A stretch of 64,000 nucleotides of DNA from Clostridia bacterium (GCA_017463325.1 JAFTPK010000005.1:7094-71093), one strand, 5' to 3'; shown: positions 1 to 13,271, counted from the stretch's first letter. Numbers and translations: made by a program. Notes: generated by a model from the letters alone, not told the origin.

Positions 1-1
1 C

Positions 2-298
2 GTGGGGATTCCTAACTACGTAAAAACGATTGGTTCAAATTACTTCGCGGAGTTGGAAGTGGTCGTACAGAAGTTGAAAATGTATTTAATTCTCGACGAT
101 ATACCGATCAAGTATCAGGACAATGTTGCCACTAATGCAAATGTGTCTATTACCGGCGAGAAAGTGATAGTTAAAGGAAATGTTGGACAAGGAAACGAAA
201 CACATAAAGAAACAACAATATCCTTAAACAATTCCGCTGGAGAAAAGAAAAGCGGATTTTTAACTTGGATAAAAAGATTGTTCGGAGGACAAAAATAA
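2..298 (+). CDS. Hypothetical protein, C-terminal 98 aa (5' end outside window)
   Basis: Open frame runs from the window edge. Its TAA stop (296-298) overlaps the mod ATG (298-300) as TAATG, implying translational coupling. No motif recognised. Confidence 0.5.
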   Translation: MGIPNYVKTIGSNYFAELEVVVQKLKMYLILDDIPIKYQDNVATNANVSITGEKVIVKGNVGQGNETHKETTISLNNSAGEKKSGFLTWIKRLFGGQK

Positions 299-2268
299 TG
301 GATAAATTGAAAATGATGTCTATGGATAAAGTTCAGGCAAATATAGAAAAAATCAAGGCGTTATTTCCTAACGCCGTAACCGAAGTTATAAGAAACGGCG
401 AACCTACACTTGCCGTAGATTTTGACGTTCTTAAACAAGAAATGAGCGACATTCTTATTGACGATAAAGAAGAACGCTATCAGTTTACTTGGCCCGACAA
501 AAAGAAGTCGATTCTCCTTGCAAATGCTCCTGTATCCGCAACGCTCCGCCCTTGTAGAGAAGAAAGCGTTGACTTTGATACTACCGAAAACCTTTATATC
601 GAAGGTGACAATCTTGATGTACTTAAACTCTTACAGGAAACATATCTTGGCAAGATAAAATTGATTTATATTGATCCCCCATATAATACGGGAAATGATT
701 TTGTATATAACGATGATTTTTCCGAAAGTTCAGAAAAATATATTTCAGAAAGCGGACAATATGACGAACAAGGAAACCGTTTGGTTCACAACACAGAAAG
801 TAATGGTCGTTTTCATACGGACTGGTTAAATATGCTATATCCCCGTTTGAAAATAGCTAAAGATTTACTCGCAGAGGACGGCATAATCTTCATAAGTATT
901 GACGATAACGAACAAGCCAATCTTAAAAAAATTTGCGATGAGATATTTGGTGTAGATAATTTCGTCAACACTGTTGCGTTGGAAATCACTCCTTCAAGCG
1001 GTGTAAAGCGCGCACACAAAGATAAAATGTATATTAAAAATACAGAATTTTTGCTCGTATATCGCAAGAGTGAAATACTCAGAATTAAACCGCTTTATGA
1101 CGAATGGTTGAATTTCGATAAGCATTACTCTCTCTATTTTGACGGTACGCGCTATTGTCCCTTGTCCGAGAAAATTAAAACTCTTGGCTCTCAATATTCT
1201 GGTATCAAAATTGATTACTATATGTATTTTGAAACCATAAAGAATTTCATCATACAAAATAGTGATAAAATTTATAGAACACACGACGCTTCTAAATGGG
1301 CAACATCGTCAGTATCAGAAAGCGACGTAATATATAATGGAGAACGAAAGATTTTCAAAGTTCACAACCCGTCAGACATACAAGAGTATGAACTTTTAAT
1401 AGAAATAGGCGTTAATAAATACAATCGCCTTGAACCTTTATCTTGGAATTTAATTGACGGTAACATTAAAACATTGAGAGGTAATTTGTGGCTTGATTTT
1501 GATAAGGATATGGGTAACGTATCCAAAGAGGGAGATATACCTTATCCCAATGGAAAAAAGCCGGTTCGCTTATTGACAGATATTATATCTTCCACAACAA
1601 ACGATGGTGATATTGTGTTAGATTTCTTTTCTGGTTCAGCAACGACAGCTCATGCTACTATGCAAATAAACGCACAACAAGGTACACATAGAAAATTTAT
1701 TATGGTACAACTCCCCGAAGTAATTAACTACGAAAACAAAGACAATGTGAAGTATTACAAGTCTTATGGCTTTACAACTATTTGCGATTTGGGAAAAGAA
1801 CGCATAAGAATTGCAGGTAAAAAGATAAAAGCAGAAAACGCTTTGACGGCTCCTATGCTCGATACCGGATTCCGTGTTCTTAAACTCGATAGCAGTAATA
1901 TGAAAGACGTATTCTATCGTCCCGGTGATTTTAGACAGGACATGCTTTCTATGCTTGAGAGCAATATCAAAGAAGATCGCTCCGCCCTTGACCTACTGTT
2001 CCAAGTTATGCTTGAACTCGGCAAGCCGCTTTCCGCAAAGATTGAAGAAAAAGAGATTGCGGGCAAACACGTGTTTATCGTTGACGAAAACGACCTTATT
2101 GCTTGTTTTGACGAGAACGTTACGTCCGAAGTTGTAAAAGCTATCGCCGAAATGAAGCCGCTTTACGCTGTATTCCGTGACAACTCTCTTTCCAGCGATT
2201 CCGTTGCGGCGAACTTCGACCAGATATTTGCTACATACTCTCCGAACACAACAAGGAAGGTATTGTAA
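298..2268 (+). CDS. mod: Type III restriction-modification methyltransferase (Mod), N6-adenine beta-class
   Basis: Motif IV IYIDPPYNTG lies upstream of motif I DFFSGSATTAHA (beta-class order). HTDWLNMLYPRL and PNGKKPVRLL are typical of the Mod/PF01555 family. GGAGGA RBS at 283-288. Start chosen at the in-frame ATG at 298 rather than the track start at 265. Confidence 0.9.
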   Translation: MDKLKMMSMDKVQANIEKIKALFPNAVTEVIRNGEPTLAVDFDVLKQEMSDILIDDKEERYQFTWPDKKKSILLANAPVSATLRPCREESVDFDTTENLYIEGDNLDVLKLLQETYLGKIKLIYIDPPYNTGNDFVYNDDFSESSEKYISESGQYDEQGNRLVHNTESNGRFHTDWLNMLYPRLKIAKDLLAEDGIIFISIDDNEQANLKKICDEIFGVDNFVNTVALEITPSSGVKRAHKDKMYIKNTEFLLVYRKSEILRIKPLYDEWLNFDKHYSLYFDGTRYCPLSEKIKTLGSQYSGIKIDYYMYFETIKNFIIQNSDKIYRTHDASKWATSSVSESDVIYNGERKIFKVHNPSDIQEYELLIEIGVNKYNRLEPLSWNLIDGNIKTLRGNLWLDFDKDMGNVSKEGDIPYPNGKKPVRLLTDIISSTTNDGDIVLDFFSGSATTAHATMQINAQQGTHRKFIMVQLPEVINYENKDNVKYYKSYGFTTICDLGKERIRIAGKKIKAENALTAPMLDTGFRVLKLDSSNMKDVFYRPGDFRQDMLSMLESNIKEDRSALDLLFQVMLELGKPLSAKIEEKEIAGKHVFIVDENDLIACFDENVTSEVVKAIAEMKPLYAVFRDNSLSSDSVAANFDQIFATYSPNTTRKVL

Positions 2269-3236
2269 TGAATGAACACGTTGCGTTCTTAAAACTTGTT
2301 CACGAGGCATTTAATAAACATGTTTTGGAATATTTTAGTGATGATAGCCAATCGGTTACTCACTATACTTCTCCTAATGGGTTTATTAGCATTATATCAA
2401 ACCAAGAATTATGGTTTGGTAATATTAAAAACGTGAATGATATTACCGAAATTGACTATGCGTTTCGCAAAATAATATATCCGTGTGTTAGAAAATTCAA
2501 ATTTCAAGATACAACATTGAATGATAGAATAATTACGCTTCTGGCACCTTTGAGAAAAAGAGAATTTTCTTTTCCATACTCAGATGAGATAAAACTCAAT
2601 AAGGCGAGTATTTTCGTGTTGAGTACATGCCTTAAAGCAGATTCAACTATGTTATGGGAATTATATTGTAAAAATAGCAATAAAGAAGGATATTCTATAA
2701 CTTTGGATAAGGAGTGTTTGGTTGACAGTATAATATCATGTTCTCAAACCAAACCGAAAGAAGACGCGAAAGCAATCCATTATATACTCCGAGGCAAAGT
2801 CGTCTATGACGAACAAAAGCAAAATGAAATAGTTAATGATTATTTGGGGATTTTAGAGTATAACCTTGAAAAACAATCCACCGACAAGGCAAAACAAGAA
2901 ATCTTAAATATCTATGTGCAAAAATTTTTAATTATGGCTTTATTTATGAAAGATAGTGACTTTGATAAAGAACAAGAATATCGCTTCGTTGTTGTAGCTG
3001 ATGATGAAGCATTAGATTGTAATACAGAAAAAAAGCCGTATTTATTATTCAATTCAAACAACGGAGCCATAGTATCGAGATTGGTCTTTCCCTTTGAAAA
3101 AAGCATTATTCAAAGTGTTAATATAAGCCCATATATTACGGCCCCCCAAGCCGAAGAATTTGCTCGTTATTTTCTTGATAAAAACTCACTTAATTCAGTT
3201 AAAATAATTCAAGGAACTCCCAAAATGAGGAGGTAA
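2268..3236 (+). CDS. DUF2971-like protein inserted between mod and res
   Basis: N-terminal THYTSPNGFISIISNQELWFGNIKNVNDITE matches my recollection of the DUF2971 signature (hYTs...sIl....lw.s....NDp.E). The ATG overlaps the mod stop (TAATG). AAGGAAGG RBS upstream. Confidence 0.6.
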   Translation: MNEHVAFLKLVHEAFNKHVLEYFSDDSQSVTHYTSPNGFISIISNQELWFGNIKNVNDITEIDYAFRKIIYPCVRKFKFQDTTLNDRIITLLAPLRKREFSFPYSDEIKLNKASIFVLSTCLKADSTMLWELYCKNSNKEGYSITLDKECLVDSIISCSQTKPKEDAKAIHYILRGKVVYDEQKQNEIVNDYLGILEYNLEKQSTDKAKQEILNIYVQKFLIMALFMKDSDFDKEQEYRFVVVADDEALDCNTEKKPYLLFNSNNGAIVSRLVFPFEKSIIQSVNISPYITAPQAEEFARYFLDKNSLNSVKIIQGTPKMRR

Positions 3237-3244
3237 ATACTTAA

Positions 3245-6200
3245 ATGAAATTCAAGTTTAAGATACAAGAATATCAGACCGAAGCCGTAGAAGCGGTTAT
3301 AAAAACATTTGAGGGACAACCCTTTAATGACCGTGTATCGTATCTACGCGACGTCGGTAAACAAAAGACTTGGCAACAAGGTTCTTTGTTCAGCGAAGAT
3401 AATACCTTTTTCGATAGTGACGGTAGTGGCTTTGAAAATGCTCCTATCGAACTTTCCGATGAACGTTTGCTTGACAATATCAGAGCGTTACAGCTTGAGA
3501 ATAATATCAAGCAATCTCCCGCCCTGTCAAAGCCATTCGGTAACACCTGTCGTTGTGCTTTAGATATTGAAATGGAAACGGGAACCGGTAAAACCTATTG
3601 CTACATAAAAACTATTTTTGAACTCAACAAGCATTACGGTTGGAGCAAGTTTATTATTGTCGTTCCGTCTATTGCTATTCGTGAAGGTGTTAAGAAGTCT
3701 TTTGAGGTAATGGAAGATCACTTCTTCGAGCATTACGGGAAAAAGGCGCGCTATTTCATATACAATAGCAAGAACCTTAACCAGCTTGATAACTTCTCCG
3801 CGAGCAAAGATATTTACGTTATGATTATCAATGCTCAAGCATTTGCGTCGTCTTTGAAAGAAGGCGCAAAAAACGAAGCGGCGAGAATTATTTATAGCAA
3901 GCAGGACAGCTTCGGCAGCCGTCGTCCTATTGACGTTATATCGGCTAACCGTCCTATTGTAATTTTGGACGAACCGCAAAAACTCGGCGGCGACGCTACG
4001 CAGGCAAGTATAAAACTCTTTAAGCCCTTGTTCGCTCTTAACTATTCCGCAACTCATAAAGACGTACACAACCTTGTTTACGTTTTGGACGCTTTAGACG
4101 CTTATCAAAAGAAACTCGTTAAGAAAATCGAAGTAAAAGGTTTTGAACTTCGCAACTTGCGAGGTACAGACGGATTTATTTATCTTTCGCAGATATTACT
4201 CGATCCCAAAAAGCCGCCTATGGCCCGCTTAACGTTTGAAATCAACTACTCAAAAGGTATCAACCGAGAAACAAGAATTGTTCAGGTGAACGATAACCTT
4301 TACGAGATGTCTGCCGGCGGCAACATGCCCCCGTTGGAGCAATATAGAAACGGCTTTATTGTCAAAGAGATAAATCCCGTTAATAACACAATTACGTTCC
4401 TTAACGGTCAGGTCCTTGCCGTTGGAGAAGTTCGTGGCGATATATCCGAGCGTGATATGCGCCGTATCCAGATCAGAGAAACTATCCTTTCCCACTTTGA
4501 AAAAGAAGAAAAACTCTTTAATATGGGTATCAAGTGCCTGTCTCTGTTCTTTATTGACGAAGTTGCTCATTATCGTCAGTATGATGAGGACGGAAACGAG
4601 GTTCTGGGTGACTTCGGCGTTATGTTTGAACAAGAATATTTGAGCGTCCTTAACGACTATATAACTCTTATCGAAAGCCCTTACGTTGAATACTTAAAGA
4701 GCATTGACGTTAAAGATACACACAAGGGATATTTCTCTATTGACAAGAAGACGAATCGCGCCGTAAACTCCGTTGAAAAGAAAGGCGTTTGCGACGATAT
4801 TTCAGCTTATGAATTGATACTTAAAAACAAGGAACGTCTGCTTTCATTTGACGAACCCACACGCTTTATTTTCTCTCACTCTGCTCTCCGTGAGGGTTGG
4901 GATAATCCTAACGTATTCCAAATCTGCACGCTCAAGCAAAGCAATAGCGAAATAAACAAACGTCAAGAGGTTGGTCGTGGCATGCGTCTTTGCGTAAACC
5001 GCGCCGGCGATAGAATTGACGGTAGCGTACACGGTGTAAAGGTCCACGACATAAACGTACTTACGGTTATTGCAAGCGATAGCTATAAATCATTTGTCGG
5101 AGGATTGCAAAAGGAAATCAAAGATACCCTTTACGAAAGACCTACAAAAGCAACCAAAGAATATTTCGCAGGTAAAACCGTTAAAATTGACGGCGTAGCT
5201 CACGAAATAACCAAGCAAGAAGCCGTCCTTATTGAACGCTATCTTGGATTTAACGGTTATATCGACTATGACGGTAACGTTACGGATACTTACCGCGCTG
5301 CTCAAGAAACTGCGTCCTTTGCAGAACTTCCCACCGAACTCAAACCTATTGCAGAAGGCGTCCACAAGCTCGTTCAGGGTGTTTTCGACGAGAAAATCCT
5401 TGCAGAGATTATCGCACCGGCAAACAAGCCCAAGATCACCGAGAACGAACTCAACGAAAACTTTGCGAGAAAAGAATTTCAAGCGCTTTGGAAATATATC
5501 AATCACAAGTACGCTTATACAGTTTCTTTCGATAGCGAAGAACTGATTGCAAATTCAATTAAGGCGATAGACGATCAAATGTATGTAACTGAACTTACAT
5601 ACGTCCGTACTGTTGGTTCGCAAGGTAGGGATTCTCTCGACTTTACCGAAGGTAAAACGAAGACTACGACGCTTCACAATACGGGCGGTTCCAACGTCGA
5701 ATATGACCTTATCGGAAAGATTTGTCAAGGTGCAACACTCACAAGAAAAACTGTCGTAAAAATCTTGCAAGGTATCCGCCCTGATAAGTTTGCTATGTTC
5801 AAGATCAACCCCGAAGAATTTATATCAAAAGCGGTCAGATATATCAACGAACAAAAAGCAACTATGATTGTTGACGAGATTACCTATAATGTGACCGAAG
5901 AAGAACCGTATAGCAGCGACATTTTTACGGCAGAAAAAGGCGTTATCAACTTTGATAAAGCCGTAAAAGCGGAAAAGCACATAACCCCTTGGGTAGTAGT
6001 TGACAGCGATACCGAAAAGAAATTTGCTATTGATTTAGAGCGTAACGACGGCGACGTTTGCGTTTATGCAAAACTCCCCAGAACATTCAAAATTCCTACT
6101 CCTGTCGGAGATTATTCGCCAGACTGGGCTATTGCTTTCTACGAAGGTAAAGTTAAGTATATCTACTTTATCGCCGAAACAAAAGGTAGTATGGAATCCT

Positions 6201-6331
6201 TACAACTCAAGAAAATGGAGAGTGCAAAAATCAGTTGTGCAAAGAAGCTCTTTGCGGGATTAAATAACGGAACCGTCCATTATGACGTTGCGGACACTTA
6301 TCAGCATTTAATGGATATAATGAACAAATAA
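3245..6331 (+). CDS. res: Type III restriction enzyme, Res subunit (SF2 helicase plus PD-(D/E)xK nuclease)
   Basis: Helicase motif I METGTGKTY, motif II ILDEPQK and motif VI-like QEVGRGMRL. C-terminal nuclease motif PDWAIAF...FIAETKG. The N-terminus FKIQEYQTEAVEAV is typical of Res. GAGGAGG RBS upstream. Confidence 0.9.
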   Translation: MKFKFKIQEYQTEAVEAVIKTFEGQPFNDRVSYLRDVGKQKTWQQGSLFSEDNTFFDSDGSGFENAPIELSDERLLDNIRALQLENNIKQSPALSKPFGNTCRCALDIEMETGTGKTYCYIKTIFELNKHYGWSKFIIVVPSIAIREGVKKSFEVMEDHFFEHYGKKARYFIYNSKNLNQLDNFSASKDIYVMIINAQAFASSLKEGAKNEAARIIYSKQDSFGSRRPIDVISANRPIVILDEPQKLGGDATQASIKLFKPLFALNYSATHKDVHNLVYVLDALDAYQKKLVKKIEVKGFELRNLRGTDGFIYLSQILLDPKKPPMARLTFEINYSKGINRETRIVQVNDNLYEMSAGGNMPPLEQYRNGFIVKEINPVNNTITFLNGQVLAVGEVRGDISERDMRRIQIRETILSHFEKEEKLFNMGIKCLSLFFIDEVAHYRQYDEDGNEVLGDFGVMFEQEYLSVLNDYITLIESPYVEYLKSIDVKDTHKGYFSIDKKTNRAVNSVEKKGVCDDISAYELILKNKERLLSFDEPTRFIFSHSALREGWDNPNVFQICTLKQSNSEINKRQEVGRGMRLCVNRAGDRIDGSVHGVKVHDINVLTVIASDSYKSFVGGLQKEIKDTLYERPTKATKEYFAGKTVKIDGVAHEITKQEAVLIERYLGFNGYIDYDGNVTDTYRAAQETASFAELPTELKPIAEGVHKLVQGVFDEKILAEIIAPANKPKITENELNENFARKEFQALWKYINHKYAYTVSFDSEELIANSIKAIDDQMYVTELTYVRTVGSQGRDSLDFTEGKTKTTTLHNTGGSNVEYDLIGKICQGATLTRKTVVKILQGIRPDKFAMFKINPEEFISKAVRYINEQKATMIVDEITYNVTEEEPYSSDIFTAEKGVINFDKAVKAEKHITPWVVVDSDTEKKFAIDLERNDGDVCVYAKLPRTFKIPTPVGDYSPDWAIAFYEGKVKYIYFIAETKGSMESLQLKKMESAKISCAKKLFAGLNNGTVHYDVADTYQHLMDIMNK

Positions 6332-6350
6332 AACTTTAAGGAGGTGTTTT

Positions 6351-7169
6351 ATGGCAAGGCGAAGAAAATCTGACGATCCGCTTGTATGGGTATTTACAAT
6401 TTTGCTTCTTATTCCAATCGGTGCATTTTGGCTCCTAAAACAACTTGCAACGCTTGTTTCCGTTGGCGTAAAAAAGAGTAATGCCAAAAGGACGAGTAGA
6501 TCGAATTACTCTCGTAGTAGTACCACAAATAAGACACGCTCCATTCCGTATAAAGCCAACACGTCACAATCCACACAACAAACTCAAAATAGAACAACTA
6601 CTAAAACAAAAACTGCGAATACTTCAAAAACATATTCTGGTGAAAACAAAATATCCTTATATGAGGCGTTACGTATTCCCGGCGATCCCGATCCAGCTTT
6701 CGGAGGTTGTACTTGCTTTGTAAACGTATCAAACACAAATAACACTACTACTTATCAAGGCAATACAACCACCGACTACGACGAATATGAGGAAGAATAC
6801 GACACCGAAGAAATGGAAGATTTCAACGGAGATATGGATATAGACGAAGAAGACGCTATTTTAATGGGCTTGGCTGTCCACGATATGTTCACAAAGCACA
6901 AAGACGAAGAAGACGAAGATAACTTTTATGAAGACGATTCTGATTATAGTTGGGAAACTCATTGTGAATACTGCGGCGAATTACTTGAAGATTGTGTATG
7001 TGACCATAGACACGAGAGCCACGAAGCAATAAGTTTATGGGATTGCGGTTGCGACGATGATGATGACTGGGGTTCGTCAGGTAGAGATAATGACGACGGT
7101 TGGGGTTCTTCAAGCCGTGATGATGACCGTGACGGTCTTGCGGATTTTGACGAGTTCAGATCATTTTAA
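6351..7169 (+). CDS. Membrane-anchored protein with a basic S/T/N-rich linker and a hyper-acidic Cys/His-rich C-terminus (unknown function)
   Basis: One N-terminal TM helix (VWVFTILLLIPIGAFWLL). A K/S/T/N/Q low-complexity stretch follows, then a D/E-rich region with CEYCGELLEDCVCDHRHESH and a tandem DDDWGSSGRD / DDGWGSSSRD repeat. AAGGAGG RBS lies 19 nt after the res stop, with no terminator in between. Confidence 0.6.
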   Translation: MARRRKSDDPLVWVFTILLLIPIGAFWLLKQLATLVSVGVKKSNAKRTSRSNYSRSSTTNKTRSIPYKANTSQSTQQTQNRTTTKTKTANTSKTYSGENKISLYEALRIPGDPDPAFGGCTCFVNVSNTNNTTTYQGNTTTDYDEYEEEYDTEEMEDFNGDMDIDEEDAILMGLAVHDMFTKHKDEEDEDNFYEDDSDYSWETHCEYCGELLEDCVCDHRHESHEAISLWDCGCDDDDDWGSSGRDNDDGWGSSSRDDDRDGLADFDEFRSF

Positions 7170-7181
7170 GCGAGGTTTATT

Positions 7182-7868
7182 ATGGGAAAAGAAGTTATAA
7201 TACCACAAGGAACTTATAAAGTGGGTAGAGATTTACCTGCTGGCGTATATCTTGTTTCGGCATTAAATGATTTAAGTTTTGTTACTATTGACAACGAAAA
7301 TGATGATTCAAGATACGACCATTATTCATTAGACGATGATAATACTAAACAATGTCGTTTTGAAGTCTTAAAAGGCGATACACTAAAAATAGAAGGCAAA
7401 GCGAAAATTAAACGAGTTACAGAATTTGCCGTGAATGTTGGGAATGTGGAAATACCCCGAACATACTCCGTTGGAACTAACGAATCCGTTTATATAGGCA
7501 AGACTATAAGTGACCAATGGAACATAAATATAAATAAGTTTTATGATAATGCTCGATCACGTCTATATAGAGGTTCCGAATATATGCGAAACGGAAAAGT
7601 TCAAAACCTACTGATCGGCAAAGGTATTATTACCGCGCAAGTTTGCGGAAGTGAAAACACGCCATATAACGTCACAATCCGTATTGCTACTACGAACAAT
7701 TCAAAAAATTTACTCCCTACAAAAGAGCAGATTTCGTTTGAATGTGATTGTCCTGACAGCGCAAAACCTTGTAAACATATCGCTGCCGTTTTATATTCTG
7801 TGGCAAACGAACTCAAAGAAAATCCGTATGTATTAAACTATTTAAGAAATGTTCCTATTTCAAAATAA
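7182..7868 (+). CDS. SWIM zinc-finger domain protein
   Basis: The C-terminal half reads YRGSEYMRNGKV...AQVCGSENTPYNVTI...FECDCPDSAKPCKHIAAVLY, which is the CxCx(n)CxH SWIM signature with its usual upstream beta region. There is a 12-nt gap after the previous gene, with a GAGG RBS. Confidence 0.7.
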   Translation: MGKEVIIPQGTYKVGRDLPAGVYLVSALNDLSFVTIDNENDDSRYDHYSLDDDNTKQCRFEVLKGDTLKIEGKAKIKRVTEFAVNVGNVEIPRTYSVGTNESVYIGKTISDQWNININKFYDNARSRLYRGSEYMRNGKVQNLLIGKGIITAQVCGSENTPYNVTIRIATTNNSKNLLPTKEQISFECDCPDSAKPCKHIAAVLYSVANELKENPYVLNYLRNVPISK

Positions 7869-7889
7869 TTATATTTTAACAAAGAAAAA

Positions 7890-7930
7890 CAATCACTTTC
7901 ACTTTATTAAATGGAAGTGATTGTTTTATT
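7890..7930 (+). terminator. Rho-independent terminator ending the six-gene R-M operon
   Basis: The stem CAATCACTT / AAGTGATTG can be extended by A:T pairs to 13 bp. The loop is 16 nt and is followed by TTTTATT. This is the first hairpin plus T-tract seen downstream of position 1. Confidence 0.6.
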
Positions 7931-7949
7931 CATAAAAAAGTGCTATAAT
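7921..7949 (+). promoter_or_regulatory. Sigma-A-type promoter for the WYL regulator gene
   Basis: -35 TTGTTT (7921-7926), 17-nt spacer, extended -10 TGcTATAAT (7941-7949). It lies 24 nt upstream of the AGGTGG RBS and the ATG at 7973, and overlaps the preceding terminator arm. Confidence 0.5.
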
Positions 7950-7972
7950 GTTGCATAGAAAGGTGGTGAATT

Positions 7973-8953
7973 ATGGCACACGATAGCGAACAAAAAATCA
8001 AGCTCCTTGTCCTTTATGATATACTTTGTCGGCTCACGGACGAAAATCACGCCCTTAATACCGACGAACTCATAGAAGAACTTGGAAAACAAGGAATAAA
8101 AGCGTCCCCGCGAGTGTTAACCCGTGATATTGAATTACTTAACTCTCACGGATACGAGATACTTTCCTACAAGAAAAAATATTACTATTATTACGTTGTT
8201 AATCGTCATTTCGATAGCGCCGAAATAGCCATGCTCGCCGATGTAGTAAAGGCATCGAAATTAAGCTCTGGACAGAAAAGTTCTCTTATAAAGAAGCTCT
8301 CCGATATGGTGGGTAGTTATCAAGCGGAATCCCTTTCAAAACACATTATCAACTGTGATACCCCCAAGCGTTCAAATAGCCATATAATTTATAGCATTGA
8401 CGCGATTGACCGCGCTATAAGCGAAAGAAAAAAAGTTTCATTTCTTTACTATTCGCTTGACGCCAAAAAGAATAAAGTTTATAGAAAAGACGGCAATAGA
8501 TACATAACGAATCCGCTTGTAATGGTCTGGAATAAGGACAACTATTACCTTATTACCTACCCGGATCGACACGACGGAACAACCACCTATCGTATAGACC
8601 GTATGGAAAGCGTTAAGGTTGAAGACGCTGACATTGTTGAGAAAGCGGAATTTGCGAACTTCGATATAGAAAAATATCGCACACAAGTATTCTCTATGTT
8701 TGGTGGCGAGGTTCATACCGTAGAAATGCAGTTCGTCGAAGAAATGATAGACGATATGTATGATAAATTCGGGGAAGAAATCCGTATTATGCCCGGCACA
8801 GACGGAACATTCAGAGTTAAGGTTCCTATTCAAATAAGCCCCACGTTCTTCTCTTGGGTTGCCGGATCCTGCGGAAAGGTTCATATTCTTTCCCCCAGAA
8901 CCATAAACGAACAATTCAAAGAATTTGTTGAAAAGATTAAAAACGCCTATTAA
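7973..8953 (+). CDS. HTH-WYL domain transcriptional regulator (BrxR/CapW/PafBC-like architecture)
   Basis: N-terminal winged HTH (LLVLYDILCRLTDENHALNTDELIEELG...). Central WYL-domain pattern VSFLYYS...NPLVMVWNKDNYYLITYP...TYRIDRMESVKV. A C-terminal extension follows. Confidence 0.8.
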   Translation: MAHDSEQKIKLLVLYDILCRLTDENHALNTDELIEELGKQGIKASPRVLTRDIELLNSHGYEILSYKKKYYYYYVVNRHFDSAEIAMLADVVKASKLSSGQKSSLIKKLSDMVGSYQAESLSKHIINCDTPKRSNSHIIYSIDAIDRAISERKKVSFLYYSLDAKKNKVYRKDGNRYITNPLVMVWNKDNYYLITYPDRHDGTTTYRIDRMESVKVEDADIVEKAEFANFDIEKYRTQVFSMFGGEVHTVEMQFVEEMIDDMYDKFGEEIRIMPGTDGTFRVKVPIQISPTFFSWVAGSCGKVHILSPRTINEQFKEFVEKIKNAY

Positions 8954-8956
8954 ACT

Positions 8957-8990
8957 AATACTCTCGGCACAGACCGAGAGTATTTTTTTG
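8957..8990 (+). terminator. Rho-independent terminator
   Basis: Perfect 11-bp stem AATACTCTCGG / CCGAGAGTATT with a 6-nt loop, running into a T7 tract. Confidence 0.75.
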
Positions 8991-9040
8991 AAAAAAATTA
9001 AAAAATGTTTTTTCAATGTCGATTTATGGACGGTGAAAAT

Positions 9041-9069
9041 TTGAAAAAAGGAAAATCTTATGGTATAAT
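9041..9069 (+). promoter_or_regulatory. Near-consensus sigma-A promoter for the LexA-like repressor gene
   Basis: -35 TTGAAA (9041-9046), 17-nt spacer, extended -10 TGgTATAAT (9061-9069). Confidence 0.6.
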
Positions 9070-9086
9070 ACGGACACTTCCTAAAT

Positions 9087-9101
9087 AGAACACCCTGTTC
9101 G
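9087..9101. promoter_or_regulatory. Possible operator (GAAC-N5-GTTC inverted repeat) just downstream of the promoter
   Basis: AGAACACCCTGTTCG lies between the -10 and the RBS of the S24 repressor gene. It resembles the Firmicutes SOS box (GAAC-N4-GTTC) but has a 5-nt spacer. Confidence 0.3.
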
Positions 9102-9126
9102 GTTTAGAAAAAAGGGAGAGATACAA

Positions 9127-9723
9127 ATGAGAACCTTAAATGAAAAAACTCTTGCAAAAATGCAAGATTACATAATTGAGTATCAAAAAGAAAAAGGTCT
9201 TTCTCCCAGCTACCGAAACATTATGAAAGCAGTAGGGATGAGTTCGGTTAGTTTAGTTCAACGTTACGTCTTTGAACTTGAGAAGAAAGGTTTAATCCGT
9301 AGGACAAATCTTGGAAACATAGCCACCTTGCCCCAGCTCAAAAGGACTGGAACAACTATGGCCCCTTTGCTCGGAGAAATCGCTTGCGGCGAACCCACTC
9401 ACGCCGTAGAAAATATAGAAGAAAGTTTCCCGTTACCCAAAGCACTATTCGGCGAAGGCGAACTATATATGCTCCGTACTTTCGGCGATAGTATGATTGA
9501 AGTTGGTATCCGAAAAGACGACCTTATCGTTGTGCGAAAACAAGACTACGCAAGTGAAGGCGATATAGTCGTCGCTCTGGCAGACGGAAAAAACACTCTA
9601 AAGCGATATTTTAGAAGAAACGGACAAGTTATTCTTCATCCAGAAAATAGAACTATGAAGGATATAAAGCCCGTTGATTGCCAAATACAAGGTGTGCTTG
9701 TAAGTTGTATCAAAATGTATTAA
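9127..9723 (+). CDS. LexA/CI-like repressor with S24 self-cleaving peptidase domain
   Basis: N-terminal wHTH (YRNIMKAVGMSSVSLVQRYVFELEKKGLI). Ala-Gly-type linker EIACGEP. Catalytic Ser in FGDSMIE and catalytic Lys in NTLKRYF. Confidence 0.85.
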   Translation: MRTLNEKTLAKMQDYIIEYQKEKGLSPSYRNIMKAVGMSSVSLVQRYVFELEKKGLIRRTNLGNIATLPQLKRTGTTMAPLLGEIACGEPTHAVENIEESFPLPKALFGEGELYMLRTFGDSMIEVGIRKDDLIVVRKQDYASEGDIVVALADGKNTLKRYFRRNGQVILHPENRTMKDIKPVDCQIQGVLVSCIKMY

Positions 9724-9861
9724 ATGATATATGCGGAGCAGCCCCGGCTCCTATTATATAAATAGTTACAGAAGATAAGACGCTCCGAAATAGGACTTCC
9801 CAACCTTGCCGTAGCTCTTAAATCAAAACTATCTGTAATTGGGAAGAAGGAGGACTAAACT

Positions 9862-10050
9862 ATGAAACATGCTATGTGTCCAGCTTGCGGAAGACGCCTT
9901 ATCAAAGGCGAAGCCGGTTCAAAGGTTGAGGTTGTGTGTCCTAAATGCGGGAAAACCGCTATCGTCACAATCGGCGACGATCACCTACATATAATCGACA
10001 AACCTTTGAACGATAAGCAACCTATGGAACAAACAAGACAAGCTATCTAA
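9862..10050 (+). CDS. Mu Com-like zinc-ribbon protein
   Basis: MCPACGRRLIKGEAGSKVEVVCPKCGKT follows the Com pattern CxxC-x(14)-E-V/I-x-CP-K/R-C. Strong AAGGAGG RBS upstream. Confidence 0.6.
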   Translation: MKHAMCPACGRRLIKGEAGSKVEVVCPKCGKTAIVTIGDDHLHIIDKPLNDKQPMEQTRQAI

Positions 10051-10143
10051 TCAAAGACAATTTAATATCAGCGGGTAATGGAGTGCCGTTGTATTCCATT
10101 ACTGACACTTTGCAAAGGTCGAACTTGACTGCGTATCATTAAG

Positions 10144-10203
10144 GATCTGGCGAGTAGATAAAATCCTATTATAAGGGATATTCTATTCGTCAGGTCTTTT
10201 TTT
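10144..10203 (+). terminator. Rho-independent terminator T1 (long stem)
   Basis: 15-bp stem GATCTGGCGAGTAGA / TCTATTCGTCAGGTC (12 Watson-Crick pairs plus 3 G:U), 23-nt loop (10159-10181), then T7 (10197-10203). Confidence 0.7.
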
Positions 10204-10215
10204 GTCGAATTTTTA

Positions 10216-10259
10216 GCCCGATTACGTGGATTTTATCACGTAATCGGGCTTTTCTTTTG
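10216..10259 (+). terminator. Rho-independent terminator T2 / large perfect inverted repeat
   Basis: Perfect 14-bp stem AGCCCGATTACGTG / CACGTAATCGGGCT with an 8-nt loop, followed by TTTCTTTTG. It lies 13 nt after T1. The arm motif CCGATTACG recurs at 10273-10281, so it is also an oriT candidate. Confidence 0.7.
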
Positions 10260-10317
10260 CCTTATACCCTGTCCGATTACGATTACATTTCAAATCAAAA
10301 ATCGGAGGAATTTTTAT

Positions 10318-10728
10318 ATGGCAACTATTAACTACACATTCGCGGACGGCAAAATCAGAACTTTTGAAGTGGACGAGCATACAGCGCTTGCCTACGAACA
10401 GATCGAGGACGAAACACGTCGTGAGGAAGAACGCGCACGTTGGAGAACGAGAATGAAATTGAACTCGCTTGAAGAAATGTCCGACTTTGGCGTTCAATTT
10501 GCTTCGGACGAACCTACCCCCGAAGAAGCTCTTATTGAAAATGAAGAAAATCACCGCCTACATAATGCTATTGCAGCACTTCCCGAAAATCAAAGAAACC
10601 TTGTAAATACCGTCTTTTATTGTGGCGTATCGTTAGTGGAAATAGCCCGTATTGAAGGCACGACCTATCAGGCAATTCAGAACCGCTTGGCAAAAATTTT
10701 GAAAAAACTAAAAAAATTTTTGATTTAG
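10318..10728 (+). CDS. Sigma-70 region-4-like HTH protein (paralog 1)
   Basis: The C-terminus LPENQRNLVNTVFYCGVSLVEIARIEGTTYQAIQNRLAKILKKL is a sigma-70 region 4 / LuxR-type HTH. The N-terminus INYTFADGKIRTFEV is shared with the next gene. Confidence 0.6.
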   Translation: MATINYTFADGKIRTFEVDEHTALAYEQIEDETRREEERARWRTRMKLNSLEEMSDFGVQFASDEPTPEEALIENEENHRLHNAIAALPENQRNLVNTVFYCGVSLVEIARIEGTTYQAIQNRLAKILKKLKKFLI

Positions 10729-10805
10729 GGGGTTGTGATTGACTGTTCCCACTCCTTAAAGGTGCAAGGCATCAGACCTTGACACTTTTTCGGAGGATTA
10801 TAGGA

Positions 10806-11216
10806 ATGGCAAAAATCAACTATACCTTTGCTGACGGACACACGGAAGAAATAGAAGTATCCGACGAATTCGCTCTGCAATACGAACTTTTAGAGGACGA
10901 CTGGAAACGTCAGGAAGAACGCGAGAAAAAGCGCCGACGTCGCAGACTGTCGTTTGAGGGCTTGGTCGAAAGCGGATACGAATTTGAGGATACCACTTGC
11001 GCCGATCCGCTTGAACGGCTCATTGAACAGGAAAACGAAAAATTTAGTCTCATATCCCTATCAGACTTTCTCACGGCTCGTCAGAAACACGTTATGCAGC
11101 TTTATTACGAAGTAGGTATGTCAAAACAAGAAATCGCCACCGCACTTGGCGTAGATGAAAGCTCAATCAGAGAGTGTTTGAATTGGGCTGTGAAAAAAAT
11201 TTTGAAGAATTTTTGA
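10806..11216 (+). CDS. Sigma-70 region-4-like HTH protein (paralog 2)
   Basis: Same architecture: N-terminal MAKINYTFADGHTEEIEV and C-terminal LTARQKHVMQLYYEVGMSKQEIATALGVDESSIRECLNWAVKKI. Start moved to the ATG at 10806, behind a GGAGG RBS. Confidence 0.6.
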   Translation: MAKINYTFADGHTEEIEVSDEFALQYELLEDDWKRQEEREKKRRRRRLSFEGLVESGYEFEDTTCADPLERLIEQENEKFSLISLSDFLTARQKHVMQLYYEVGMSKQEIATALGVDESSIRECLNWAVKKILKNF

Positions 11217-11307
11217 AAATCGGTCAAAATACCCCCGATTTTTACCCCTGCTTATTCCCCGATAGGTGAAGGGGTTACAACTTTCAATCAATCAGGAGGA
11301 ACATTTA

Positions 11308-11547
11308 ATGTTAGTCAAAAAAGAAAAACTTGCTCATTTTTTAGAGGTTAAGAACCTTTCCAAAGAGAAATTCGCCGCTATCCTTGACGTTGAGGTTAGC
11401 GAAGTTGAAAAAATGCTGAACGGCGAAACCGTTGGATTACATACGTCACGAAGGTTTATTCGCTTTTTCAAAGCCGAAGTAGCTCAACACTATATCGACT
11501 GGGAAACGATGAACATAAAAAATCCGTTGGAGGAAAAAAAGAAATGA
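11308..11547 (+). CDS. Small XRE-like HTH protein (putative)
   Basis: LSKEKFAAILDVEVSEVEKMLNGE resembles an XRE-type HTH. Start set at the ATG at 11308, behind an AGGAGG RBS. Confidence 0.45.
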   Translation: MLVKKEKLAHFLEVKNLSKEKFAAILDVEVSEVEKMLNGETVGLHTSRRFIRFFKAEVAQHYIDWETMNIKNPLEEKKK

Positions 11548-12014
11548 AAAATTTTGAAGTACAACACACCCTGCGCCTTTACGATCCCGACCTTGTGTCC
11601 GCTATCGGTAAAATGCACGAACGCAAAAGCAAGGAATTTCGCAATAAAAACGAATTTCTTACAGAACTCGTGAAACTCGGTCTTATGGAAATGCAGAAAC
11701 GCGAAGCGGCTAAAATCGCTGACCTACCGCCTACCGATGCGACCACGCCAAAGCCCGAATGTGCCGATACCTTGAAAGAAATCTATGAGATTTTGGACGC
11801 TGTTTCTAAATATATCTACACACAGTTCAAATCCCTTTACGTAAACCAACGTGTAGTGGAACGTCTCATGTCTTCTATCTATCGTCAGCTTCAGGAAATG
11901 CACCACGAGGACACCGCTACCATACGCAATGCCGACGCCGGATTCTATGACGATCTCCCCGAACGCTTTGAGAAAATCATAGTCAATCTCAAGAACACCT
12001 ACGGTCTTAAATGA
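11544..12014 (+). CDS. Putative relaxosome accessory protein (RHH/MobC-like position)
   Basis: ATGA overlaps with both neighbours. FRNKNEFLTELVKLGL resembles ribbon-helix-helix accessory proteins found upstream of relaxase genes. The assignment rests mainly on position. Confidence 0.35.
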   Translation: MKNFEVQHTLRLYDPDLVSAIGKMHERKSKEFRNKNEFLTELVKLGLMEMQKREAAKIADLPPTDATTPKPECADTLKEIYEILDAVSKYIYTQFKSLYVNQRVVERLMSSIYRQLQEMHHEDTATIRNADAGFYDDLPERFEKIIVNLKNTYGLK

Positions 12015-13237
12015 GTTCTCCGAATGTAGTATGTCAAATCTATTTTTTGGACAACGAAAAATCCCTTGCAAAAAACCCTTTGCGAGAAGAAAAATACGGT
12101 AAAAAAAGGAGGTTCTATTCGTGTAAAAACGCAAAATACAACTACGTGGATTACGTGCAGGACGGCTCGCAAAAATCCCTTGATTACGTCGATTATTCAG
12201 GCAATAGCGAAAAGAGTTCGGGCGTATTCAATGCAGACGGCCTTTTAACAAAGGAGCAGCGCAAAGCCCTAAAGCATGATTTACGCACTACGGATAGTGT
12301 GATATGGCACGGCTTTATATCCTTTACCGAAGACTTCGGCAATCTATATTGTAACGACTACGAATCCGCTTACCGAATGATGAAAACGGAATTTCCGCGA
12401 TTTTTGAAATCCGCAGGGCTTAACCCCGATAATGTGGTCTGGTATGCCGGATTACACGAAAATACGGATAATCGCCATATACACTTTTCATTTTTTGAAA
12501 AACAGCCGACAAAATATCGCGCACGCAGTAAAAATCTGCATTTCTCAAACGGAAAGCTCCCATATCACAGTATAGAGCAATTCAAACTCCGCACCGAGCA
12601 AAAATTGACCGATTCTACGGCACAGTTAAAACTCGCCCGAAAACAACTTACGGAATCCACGAAAAACGTGCTATTTTCAGCGCAAAGCCCTTTGAAATAC
12701 AACAGAGAGGTTCAAACCCTTATGCTTCGCTTGCTTGAGGATTTGCCCACTACGGGAAGATTGTCCTACGATAGCGAAAATATGGCTCCGTTTCGTCCGC
12801 AGATACAGGAAATAGTGAACTGTGTTATACGGTCAAACCGAAATACATACCAAGCATACGTTGATTTTTGCCGTGTTATATCCGACAAAGATAAGGACAC
12901 ACTTCGTATCCTTACGAACCTAAAAATCAAACCTGAACATTGGGATAGGTTTCTAATATCAGACAAATATATGGATGACCTTTATCGTCGGCTCGGCAAT
13001 CAGGTAATAAACTCTCTACGTGTTTACAAAGGCAAACTTAAGCCCACAAAATCCCGTCTCGCCAATAAGCGAATACGGCGCGGTGTCCGTACCGGTCTTC
13101 TTGCCTATTGTGTTAAACTCAATGCTATTGTGGAAACCGAAACCCAAGAAGCATTTGAAGAATATTACCGCAAAATCCAAGAACAAGATACCGAAAACGA
13201 TATTATGAAGGAGGAAATGCTTTACGAAATGGAATAA
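12011..13237 (+). CDS. Relaxase/mobilisation nuclease (MOBP-like)
   Basis: Histidine triad LHENTDNRHIHFSFFE (HxDxxxxHxH-type) about 150 aa from the N-terminus. Sits immediately upstream of the coupling-protein gene. Confidence 0.8.
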   Translation: MSSPNVVCQIYFLDNEKSLAKNPLREEKYGKKRRFYSCKNAKYNYVDYVQDGSQKSLDYVDYSGNSEKSSGVFNADGLLTKEQRKALKHDLRTTDSVIWHGFISFTEDFGNLYCNDYESAYRMMKTEFPRFLKSAGLNPDNVVWYAGLHENTDNRHIHFSFFEKQPTKYRARSKNLHFSNGKLPYHSIEQFKLRTEQKLTDSTAQLKLARKQLTESTKNVLFSAQSPLKYNREVQTLMLRLLEDLPTTGRLSYDSENMAPFRPQIQEIVNCVIRSNRNTYQAYVDFCRVISDKDKDTLRILTNLKIKPEHWDRFLISDKYMDDLYRRLGNQVINSLRVYKGKLKPTKSRLANKRIRRGVRTGLLAYCVKLNAIVETETQEAFEEYYRKIQEQDTENDIMKEEMLYEME

Positions 13238-13271
13238 AAAAATTCCCATTATATGCGGCATCGTCGCTCTT

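Follow-up and report, generated by a model that had tools for sequence, protein, structure and literature searches.

The 64,000 nucleotides (nt) of Clostridia bacterium DNA considered here (GCA_017463325.1 JAFTPK010000005.1:7094-71093, single strand; hereafter the window) begin with a series of co-oriented genes built around a type III restriction-modification (R-M) pair, Mod and Res. An earlier note on this DNA had described them as a six-gene operon, and ORF calling over positions 1-7930 verified the six co-oriented open reading frames (ORFs) at the coordinates given there. The count of six, however, is an artefact of the window edge. An exact sequence look-up of the DUF2971 protein encoded between mod and res retrieved a 108-kb contig (L001) with the same locus, where the genes of an SNF2-family helicase and a DUF4391 protein lie upstream (window position = L001 position minus 7733). 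The window's left edge truncates the operon, whose full extent is eight genes over ~12.2 kb; window positions 1-7930 are its distal part, the downstream two-thirds. Here we describe this operon as a probable type III-derived core of four genes with exchangeable passengers. The features of the locus are as follows, in window coordinates unless L001 is named (aa, amino acids).

L001 3658-6951, co-oriented, upstream of the window: SNF2-family helicase, 1097 aa
L001 6960-7607, co-oriented, upstream of the window: DUF4391 protein, 215 aa
2-298, plus strand: 3' end of the p145 gene (last 98 of 145 codons; complete at L001 7594-8031)
298-2268, plus strand: type III Mod, 656 aa (PADLOC MTase_III, Pfam N6_N4_Mtase)
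2268-3236, plus strand: DUF2971 protein, 322 aa (Pfam DUF2971)
3245-6331, plus strand: type III Res, 1028 aa (PADLOC REase_III, Pfam ResIII and RE_endonuc)
6335-7930, plus strand: two-gene cassette of the acidic membrane Zn protein, the SWIM protein and the terminator (blastn to L101/L102)
6351-7169, plus strand: acidic membrane protein, 272 aa (composition, hydropathy, motifs, homologue alignment)
7182-7868, plus strand: SWIM zinc-finger protein, 228 aa (Pfam SWIM, AF2/Foldseek)
7886-7930, plus strand: intrinsic terminator of the cassette and of the operon (RNA folding)
7973-8953, plus strand: WYL/WCX transcription regulator (Pfam WYL and WCX, PADLOC WYL)

The p145 gene overlaps the DUF4391 gene by 14 nt and mod by 1 nt (Mod starts at L001 8031, window 298). 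TAATG stop/start overlaps stand at 296-300 (p145/Mod) and 2266-2270 (Mod/DUF2971), and the remaining intergenic gaps measure 8 nt (DUF2971-Res), 19 nt (Res-acidic) and 12 nt (acidic-SWIM), the overlaps and gaps within the window being just as first reported. The accompanying statement that every gene has a GGAGG-type ribosome-binding site (RBS) holds for Mod, Res and the acidic gene (GGAGG or GAGGAGG) and fails for the two genes with weaker sites, DUF2971 (AGGAAGG) and SWIM (GAGG alone). The hairpin with a T-tract, said to be the first and to mark the operon's end, was confirmed by folding of 7878-7932: a 16-bp stem at 7886-7930 with -18.4 kcal/mol (z = -6.5) is followed by UUUUAUU, and 0 of 200 shuffled sequences were equally stable. 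A consensus scanner detected no convincing plus-strand terminator inside 1-7880; it also missed the hairpin at 7886-7927, whose loop is longer than 8 nt and which required folding. No internal promoter of the operon rises above chance, and a strong terminator is located upstream of it (L001 3372-3396). The tight packing and the absence of terminators suggest read-through from an SNF2 promoter to position 7930.

The Mod protein matches PADLOC MTase_III over its full length (1.3e-198), Pfam N6_N4_Mtase (1e-31) and the Mod subunit of EcoP15I (4zcf_A, 1.2e-53). Its DPPY motif (aa 126-129, nt 673-684) stands upstream of an FxGxG-like FFSGS (aa 443-447, nt 1624-1638), and its central region is variable, as expected of a target-recognition domain; Mod is predicted to be the N6-adenine methyltransferase subunit of a type III system. 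Res likewise matches PADLOC REase_III over its full length (3.6e-287), contains the Pfam domains ResIII and RE_endonuc, and is homologous to EcoP15I Res (4zcf_C, 1.1e-66). It has the SF2 helicase motifs GTGKT (nt 3581-3595), DEPQ (3968-3979), SAT and QxxGR (QEVGR), and a C-terminal PD...ExK endonuclease (SPDW at 6116-6127, AETKG at 6173-6187). The claim that both proteins carry complete type III motifs is borne out by this mapping and by the EcoP15I homology: the type III hallmarks are present both in Mod (DPPY before FxGxG) and in Res (helicase plus PD-(D/E)xK). Against NCBIfam PRK15483 Res scores 354 bits, under the equivalog cutoff of 564, and therefore belongs to a divergent clade. The adjacent two-gene arrangement is absent, as a 969-nt DUF2971 gene (31.9% GC versus 37-42% for Mod and Res) separates mod from res within the operon of eight genes. 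With SNF2 and DUF4391 upstream in addition, the earlier view that this is not plain two-gene type III R-M was correct.

The conserved non-canonical partners of Mod and Res are the SNF2 helicase and DUF4391, which the earlier reader missed because both lie outside the window. A scan for Res with one genome per species yielded 80 loci (Res identity 48-81%) from Firmicutes, Bacteroidota, Actinomycetota, Fibrobacterota, Synergistota, Planctomycetota and others, and the 51 loci with at least 7.5 kb upstream of Res were tested for the core by local tblastn and an iterated DUF4391 hidden Markov model. In 35 of the 51 loci both SNF2 and DUF4391 lie ahead of Mod-Res, with order and strand unchanged, whereas 6 retain remnants and 10 have neither; the SNF2 homologues in the 35 loci are full length and 45-80% identical. 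On L001 the co-oriented genes of a C3a139-type SNF2 protein, DUF4391, Mod and Res lie in one operon, the four-gene core spanning 3658-14064. The same order, namely a helicase-related/SNF2 protein, DUF4391 (found by tblastn), a site-specific methyltransferase and a DEAD/DEAH helicase, was observed in each of the five annotated plasmid loci that were inspected; their hosts are Mycolicibacterium, Sulfitobacter, Photobacterium, Raoultella and Acinetobacter sp. NEB149 (Actinomycetota, Alpha- and Gammaproteobacteria). The four-gene unit is conserved across Firmicutes, Bacteroidota, Actinomycetota and Proteobacteria, and its carriers include plasmids of clinical Enterobacteriaceae and Acinetobacter.

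The PADLOC model C3a139 ('HKD+Snf2') covers the whole SNF2 protein (5e-120); the protein's matches to DISARM DrmD are partial (1e-33 to 1e-42, far under the family cutoff), and the match to HmaA is confined to part of the helicase core (2e-24). The active HKD/PLD nuclease domain that the name of the C3a139 model might suggest was rejected, since 33 of 34 homologues lack the HxKxxxxD motif, as does the window lineage. DUF4391 has no informative PHROGs family. In full-text literature searches we found no paper discussing DUF4391, with passing mentions only (a domain table, an unrelated phage-structure preprint), and no paper on the SNF2/DUF4391/Mod/Res unit. The four-gene core is apparently uncharacterised so far.

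The junctions between these core genes are frequently occupied. Among the Res-related loci the distance from Mod to Res is bimodal, either <=20 nt or 345-2724 nt, and about half of the Mod-Res pairs are directly adjacent. The long gaps hold co-oriented, tightly packed genes that form 26 sequence clusters across 30 loci, one cluster being probably a spurious overlapping ORF. Pfam families in this slot include the YhcG/DUF1016 PDDEXK nuclease, Abi_C, the 23S-rRNA-IVP (23S_rRNA_IVP) four-helix bundle, MNT+HepT, Phd+YoeB, RhuM, Fic+Bro-N, Zeta toxin, DUF3644+EC042_2821, CpXC, AAA_21/AAA_15 with a partner gene, SLFN/AlbA_2 and DUF2971. The DUF4391-to-Mod junction is occupied in 22 of 41 loci and the SNF2-to-DUF4391 junction in 13 of 39. 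At least one insert is present in 32 of the 39 complete four-gene loci (82%); the other seven are compact and insert-free. On a neighbour-joining tree of Res, the Abi_C, YhcG, IVP, MNT-HepT, Phd-YoeB and DUF2971 passengers are scattered over unrelated branches, and close relatives carry different passengers. On the inspected plasmids, a 900-aa ATP-binding protein is inserted between DUF4391 and the methyltransferase in Raoultella planticola p3045-3 (L111) and a 551-aa 'RNA-binding domain' protein separates the methyltransferase from Res in Sulfitobacter (L113). Insertion sequence (IS) elements break two of the five plasmid loci, that of Acinetobacter sp. NEB149 pMsp65 (by IS1) and that of Sulfitobacter.

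Replacement of passengers is best seen in the closest relative of the window operon, L085. Its core proteins are 93% (SNF2), 81% (DUF4391), 85% (Mod) and 83% (Res) identical to those of the window lineage, with 78-81% nucleotide identity across SNF2+DUF4391, Mod and Res. This operon has no p145, the homology ending exactly at the borders of the p145 gene, and in place of DUF2971 it has an unrelated 245-aa gene, with the homology break at window 2272-3244; no informative PHROGs family was found for the 245-aa product. The possibility that the cassette behind Res was exchanged at a recombination breakpoint within the 3' end of res was considered and dropped, as a global alignment showed the whole C-terminal third of Res to be simply more variable. 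Another passenger pair follows Res in L095 (12059-16963; Res 76% identical, DUF2971 present): 8 nt past Res begins the gene of a 1163-aa protein with a weak N-terminal ResIII match, and an overlapping gene encodes a 598-aa protein.

These comparisons bear directly on the proposal that the extra genes are parts of an integrated composite system, in which all proteins of 1-7930, with or without SNF2 and DUF4391, would assemble into a modified type III enzyme or be required by it. The tight translational packing, the single terminator and the absence of internal promoters above chance would fit such a machine, as would the fact that one clade has kept DUF2971 in the Mod-Res slot while its Res proteins diverged by ~25%. 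Yet p145, the acidic protein and the SWIM protein occur in 0 of the 80 Res-related loci and DUF2971 in only ~3 of them (between Mod and Res in L078 and L021, just past Res in L056). The core of L085 is 81-93% identical and does without p145 and DUF2971, the insert-free loci and the directly adjacent Mod-Res pairs dispense with inserts altogether, the Mod-Res gap of other loci is home to at least 25 unrelated families, and both the cassette and a DUF2971 homologue occur without R-M genes. The comparative data already largely refute the composite machine, and we regard it as very improbable. The association of the extra genes with mod/res that the earlier note proposed to look for is non-random for two of them with respect to this Mod/Res clade: the DUF2971 subfamily lies between Mod and Res in four of five contexts, and the cassette directly behind Res in three of eight.

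The passengers themselves differ in how much is recognizable. The p145 protein has no Pfam, PADLOC, NCBIfam or PHROGs family and no match in viral contigs, and forms just 4 clusters among 5.8 billion proteins. It is not present in L085, L095 or L097. In L109, the sole other context with readable neighbours, its homologue (59% identical) is again located between DUF4391 and the methyltransferase.

The DUF2971 protein matches Pfam DUF2971 above the cutoff of 22 (34.6 bits, 5e-8), in agreement with its first assignment, and weakly matches PADLOC PDC-S31. The DUF2971 family includes Aristaios, a single-gene abortive-infection system of lactococcal plasmids with a predicted ADP-ribosyltransferase fold (PMC11381338); a further study (PMC12522546) places the family among the DarT-like proteins, in the HYE clade. 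In the subfamily alignment H32 is nearly invariant and Y33, S35, Y133, E235, E237 and R239 are invariant; with HYTS at nt 2361-2372 and EQEYR (ExE) at nt 2970-2984, these residues may correspond to the H-Y-E / ExE catalytic motifs by analogy with the latter study. The AlphaFold2 (AF2) model has a pLDDT of 87.6, and its top three Foldseek matches in the PDB are all DarT, although weak (E 0.065-0.09, probability 0.57-0.82, TM 0.28-0.45). We predict from this that the protein is a DarT-like ADP-ribosyltransferase. A search of BFVD with the model returned uncharacterised viral proteins only; tblastn against plasmids (PLSDB) found no lactococcal plasmid at E<=1e-3, the best plasmid DUF2971 proteins being 20-27% identical.

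The subfamily comprises 13 clusters. The Mod-Res slot holds a member in the window, L095/96 (46% identity), L097-99 (63%, without SNF2 and DUF4391) and L078 (37%). The homologue in L093 (50%) is R-M-free and occurs on its own within a defence island, next to an MmeI-type enzyme. One clade of the Res tree unites the window, L095 and L097, in which DUF2971 was retained vertically; L078 and L021 are independent.

The region behind Res is a discrete mobile unit. By blastn, exactly window 6335-7930 is 85% identical at the nucleotide level to L101/L102. The aligned stretch starts with the RBS directly behind the stop codon of Res and includes the terminator to its end, the hairpin being kept at the cassette end in L101/L102. 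There the cassette is flanked by unrelated genes resembling S-adenosylmethionine (SAM) methyltransferases; the SWIM protein is 87% and the acidic protein 74% identical. The acidic and SWIM genes are paired, 12-19 nt apart, in eight of eight contexts. In five of these (L086, L089, L091, L092 and L101/102) no R-M genes are present, and the neighbours are metabolic or housekeeping genes, not defence islands. In the other three (the window, L085 and L100) the cassette lies directly behind a Res of the same clade. L085 and L100 represent one lineage, and the window belongs to a different SWIM clade, with an R-M-free nearest member; therefore, at least two independent linkages of the cassette to Res have arisen.

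The acidic protein begins with a hydrophobic helix (aa 11-29) and a basic S/T/N-rich linker, followed by a conserved ISLYEALRxPGDPDP motif (nt 6651-6695) and a hyper-acidic C-terminal half with 52 D+E in the last 132 aa. The latter includes a Cys/His cluster, CEYCGELLEDCVCDHRHESHE, at nt 6963-7025 and a C-terminal DFDEFRSF (DFDEFxSF), and the Cys/His and motif columns are invariant in an alignment with three homologues. No Pfam, PADLOC or PHROGs family was found for it; exhaustive HMMER search of 1.84 billion representatives gave 30 matches at E<=1e-3 and 6 at E<=1e-30. Among the 30 matches, the Cys/His core, WETHCEYCxELLEDCxCDxxHESHE...CGC (window 6963-7052, aa 190-235), is also found by itself in many very short proteins of 67-180 aa, which suggests a small independent zinc-binding mini-domain.

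The SWIM protein comprises an N-terminal beta-sandwich (aa 1-94) and a C-terminal SWIM module with the CxCx7CxH motif CDCPDSAKPCKH (aa 188-199, nt 7743-7778). Its assignment to Pfam SWIM, proposed before, is supported above the cutoff of 19.6 (24.3 bits, 2.2e-5), and the N-terminus resembles PADLOC PDC-S62 (3e-8). The best PDB fold match of the AF2 model (pLDDT 72) is the SWIM region of ZSWIM8 (probability 1.0, E 9e-3); Foldseek gave no significant match for the beta-sandwich. There are 12 full-length clusters at 44-87% identity. Its SWIM module is homologous to one that some SNF2 helicases carry at their N-terminus, with 34% identity to that end of a 1178-aa SNF2 helicase in L105. No informative PHROGs family was found, a metagenome scan with the SWIM alignment returned one 1-kb locus only, and a scan of viral contigs found only SNF2-fused SWIM modules.

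The cassette may not serve defence at all. It could be a selfish or addiction cassette that lands at operon 3' ends, or a regulatory pair in which a membrane-tethered Zn/acidic anti-factor could sequester a SWIM partner that binds DNA or protein. The five contexts among metabolic or housekeeping genes are in line with this, and so is its movement as a 1.6-kb unit equipped with an RBS and a terminator; apart from the generic SWIM module, it shows no similarity to PADLOC defence proteins. The repeated docking behind the same Res clade argues to the contrary, as does the embedding logic, by which such a neighbourhood implies defence; moreover, the SWIM module is related to SNF2-fused ones, and the operon encodes an SNF2 helicase. 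We consider a role outside defence rather unlikely, though the most plausible of the alternatives discussed here.

The same linkages may be read as guarding. As in the case of PrrC, an intact R-M complex could hold DUF2971 and/or the acidic/SWIM pair inactive and release their toxicity as a second line, by ADP-ribosylation in the case of DUF2971, when an anti-restriction factor of a phage or plasmid disables Res or Mod. This accords with the position of the DUF2971 subfamily between Mod and Res in four of five contexts, including L097, which has no SNF2 or DUF4391; with the position of the cassette directly behind Res in three of eight contexts and in two SWIM clades, such a Res being a rare neighbour a priori; and with the precedents of PrrC-EcoprrI and other toxins embedded in R-M operons. 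However, both modules also exist free of R-M genes, Aristaios (DUF2971) works as a single gene, and three of the four DUF2971 cases share descent. In addition, recombination through the conserved flanks, the 3' end of mod and the 5' end of res, could explain the fidelity to the slot. Guarding of this kind seems to us an unlikely explanation, less so than the composite machine and more so than a cassette without defensive function.

We favour instead a nested defence island carried near the integrase end of a conjugative element, consisting of the four-gene type III-derived core and swappable passengers, and assign this reading a probability of roughly 0.7. The gene content and order, the conservation statistics, the modular replacement of passengers and the boundaries of the cassette are directly established. 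For co-transcription, enzymatic activities, defence roles and the mechanism of exchange we infer the following. By analogy with EcoP15I, Mod2 would methylate one strand of an asymmetric site, and the SF2 ATPase of Res would trigger sliding, with PD-ExK cleavage at unmethylated sites; as in type III systems generally, cleavage would be ATP-dependent and require two such sites in inverse orientation. SNF2 and DUF4391 would act as conserved accessory subunits. The junctions of the core genes and the 3' end of the operon would serve as slots that take co-oriented, promoter-less passengers, read through together with the core. In this operon the presumed passengers are p145, DUF2971 as an abortive-infection effector of the Aristaios type, and a self-contained cassette supplying the terminator. 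They would most likely add layers of defence or addiction that are co-expressed with restriction, rather than being subunits of the restriction enzyme, and recombination in the conserved genes on either side may swap them among related operons.

Several observations speak against this nested-island interpretation or weaken parts of it. Some passengers are linked to one R-M clade more than pure hitch-hiking predicts: the cassette is found directly behind Res of the same clade in three of eight contexts, the DUF2971 subfamily occupies the Mod-Res slot in four of five (three of them sharing descent in one Res clade), and p145 is in the same slot in two of two. The fold support for an ADP-ribosyltransferase in DUF2971 is weak (E about 0.07). 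Co-transcription is deduced from the packing of the genes and the lack of terminators. Finally, the sample of contexts for the rare families is small and consists mostly of short metagenomic contigs.

A more ambitious combination of these ideas would be a phylum-spanning four-component restriction system that also ranks among the docking platforms used most heavily by embedded defence genes. In it SNF2 and DUF4391 would be working parts, for example a second translocase or remodeller, or a sensor licensing Res; DUF2971 and the acidic-Zn/SWIM pair would guard the R-M complex and be triggered when it is inhibited; and the SWIM protein would act in trans on the SWIM-less SNF2. Taken as a whole, this combination seems to us unlikely, about as doubtful as guarding alone.

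The operon is followed by a gene encoding a WYL-type regulator (Pfam WYL 2e-11 and WCX 5e-5; PADLOC WYL 2e-24). It has its own promoter with an extended -10 element (TGnTATAAT-type, about 7935-7950) and its own strong terminator (8957-8984), and therefore does not belong to the operon. The earlier note had placed it immediately after the operon and called it a class often found beside defence systems. WYL homologues do recur: they are found near the system in 7 of the 80 loci (about 9%), in L021 divergently and immediately upstream of SNF2, and on the Raoultella plasmid p3045-3 WYL is the first gene of the operon. The association of WYL with the system is real but sporadic. The WYL gene may equally regulate the conjugative element, given the adjacent LexA-like and sigma-like regulators.

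These neighbours occupy 9127-11216: WYL is followed by the gene of a LexA-like S24 peptidase repressor (9127-9723), an ORF of 62 aa that resembles a zinc ribbon, two paralogous sigma-70 region-4 proteins of 136 and 145 aa with a common N-terminal 'INYTFADG', and then the MobL relaxase. The region probably serves the element as its own SOS-responsive switch. Besides this relaxase, the rest of the window encodes a coupling protein, a VirB4-like ATPase and an integrase, so that the operon was rightly described as cargo of a conjugative element, and a tyrosine integrase is located slightly further upstream of the operon on L001. The GC content rises in steps from 38.3% in the operon (1-7930) to 43.9% in the conjugation and regulatory part (7931-35000) and 50.3% in the distal window (35000-64000), which suggests layered acquisition, of defence cargo in an element and of the element in a chromosome.

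Upstream of the operon, the perfectly palindromic GTTCACCT-N11-AGGTGAAC, with runs of A and T on its flanks, occurs twice (L001 2684-2710 and 3554-3580; 0 expected by chance). One copy lies upstream of a 154-aa gene and the other ~80 nt before the start of SNF2; it could be an operator or a bidirectional terminator. As an operator common to the operon and the WYL/LexA region it was rejected, there being no copy in the 64-kb window. The 154-aa gene (L001 2762-3226), situated between the integrase and the operon, has no family match; the palindrome precedes it and the terminator at 3372-3396 follows.

Because 82% of the complete loci carry nested genes, the four-gene core offers a rich unexploited host for 'guilt-by-embedding' discovery of defence genes. 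The candidates obtained so far are a DUF2971 lineage found almost exclusively between mod and res, the orphan 145-aa protein, and the rare acidic-Zn/SWIM cassette. For the conjugative element, the operon would represent a stacked payload of defence and addiction delivered together with the element.

Various known systems share parts of this organization. With EcoP15I and EcoP1I (Mod2Res) it has in common homologous Mod and Res, helicase motifs I, II, III and VI, a C-terminal PD-ExK and the order of mod before res. The canonical systems, however, are two adjacent genes, whereas here a passenger splits mod from res and SNF2 and DUF4391 precede them. Class 1 DISARM (DrmD SNF2 helicase, DrmMI methylase, DrmA, DrmB, DrmC PLD) likewise combines an SNF2 helicase, an adenine methyltransferase and a helicase-nuclease in one operon; in contrast to it, the window system has a genuine type III Res and neither DrmA nor DrmB (DUF1998). 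Membership in DISARM was rejected on these grounds, with no DrmA or DrmB in L001 and DrmD-like matches that are partial and far below cutoff. The WYL + WCX protein resembles regulators of the BrxR/CapW type in adjoining a defence operon and in recurring in other taxa, but here it is downstream, has its own promoter, and lies beside the LexA-like and sigma-like regulators of the element.

The effector-like passengers also have counterparts. PrrC in EcoprrI and DarTG2 in the type I R-M island of enteropathogenic Escherichia coli (EPEC) are toxin-type effectors inside R-M operons and are co-transcribed with them, as the DUF2971 gene presumably is here; DarT and DUF2971 are both predicted to be ADP-ribosyltransferases of the DNA type. 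Unlike these cases, whose hosts are type I systems, no DarG-like macrodomain antitoxin is found beside DUF2971. Aristaios (316 aa) and the window DUF2971 protein (322 aa) belong to one Pfam family and are similar in length, and an ADP-ribosyltransferase fold is predicted for Aristaios and, weakly, for the window protein; but Aristaios stands alone, whereas the window protein is embedded between mod and res and has no detectable close sequence relationship to it.

A further parallel is the embedding of defence genes described for Hma, BREX, DISARM and type I R-M ('guilt-by-embedding', Payne et al. 2024 preprint, 10.1101/2024.01.29.577857; the Hma hotspot, PMC11232893). Membership in Hma itself was rejected: HmaA (DUF3883 nuclease-helicase), HmaB (DUF1156 methylase) and HmaC (DUF499 ATPase) are absent from L001, the SNF2 protein matches only part of the HmaA core, and Mod is a type III N6_N4_Mtase. 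As hosts, the embedding survey (10.1101/2024.01.29.577857) covered only these four kinds of system, Hma, BREX, DISARM and type I R-M, and no type III R-M. Genes of HEPN, RhuM, Fic and EC042_2821 proteins are known within R-M operons (PMC3710099), and the passenger families shared with known R-M operons are RhuM, Fic, EC042_2821/DUF3644, AAA_21 and MNT-HepT. As in the systems of the survey, a helicase/methylase operon holds diverse co-oriented nested genes that are frequently exchanged, and the rate of insertion, 82% of complete loci, compares with 63-67% reported for Hma. A type III-based host of embedded genes is thus a variant of an already known phenomenon rather than a categorically new machine.

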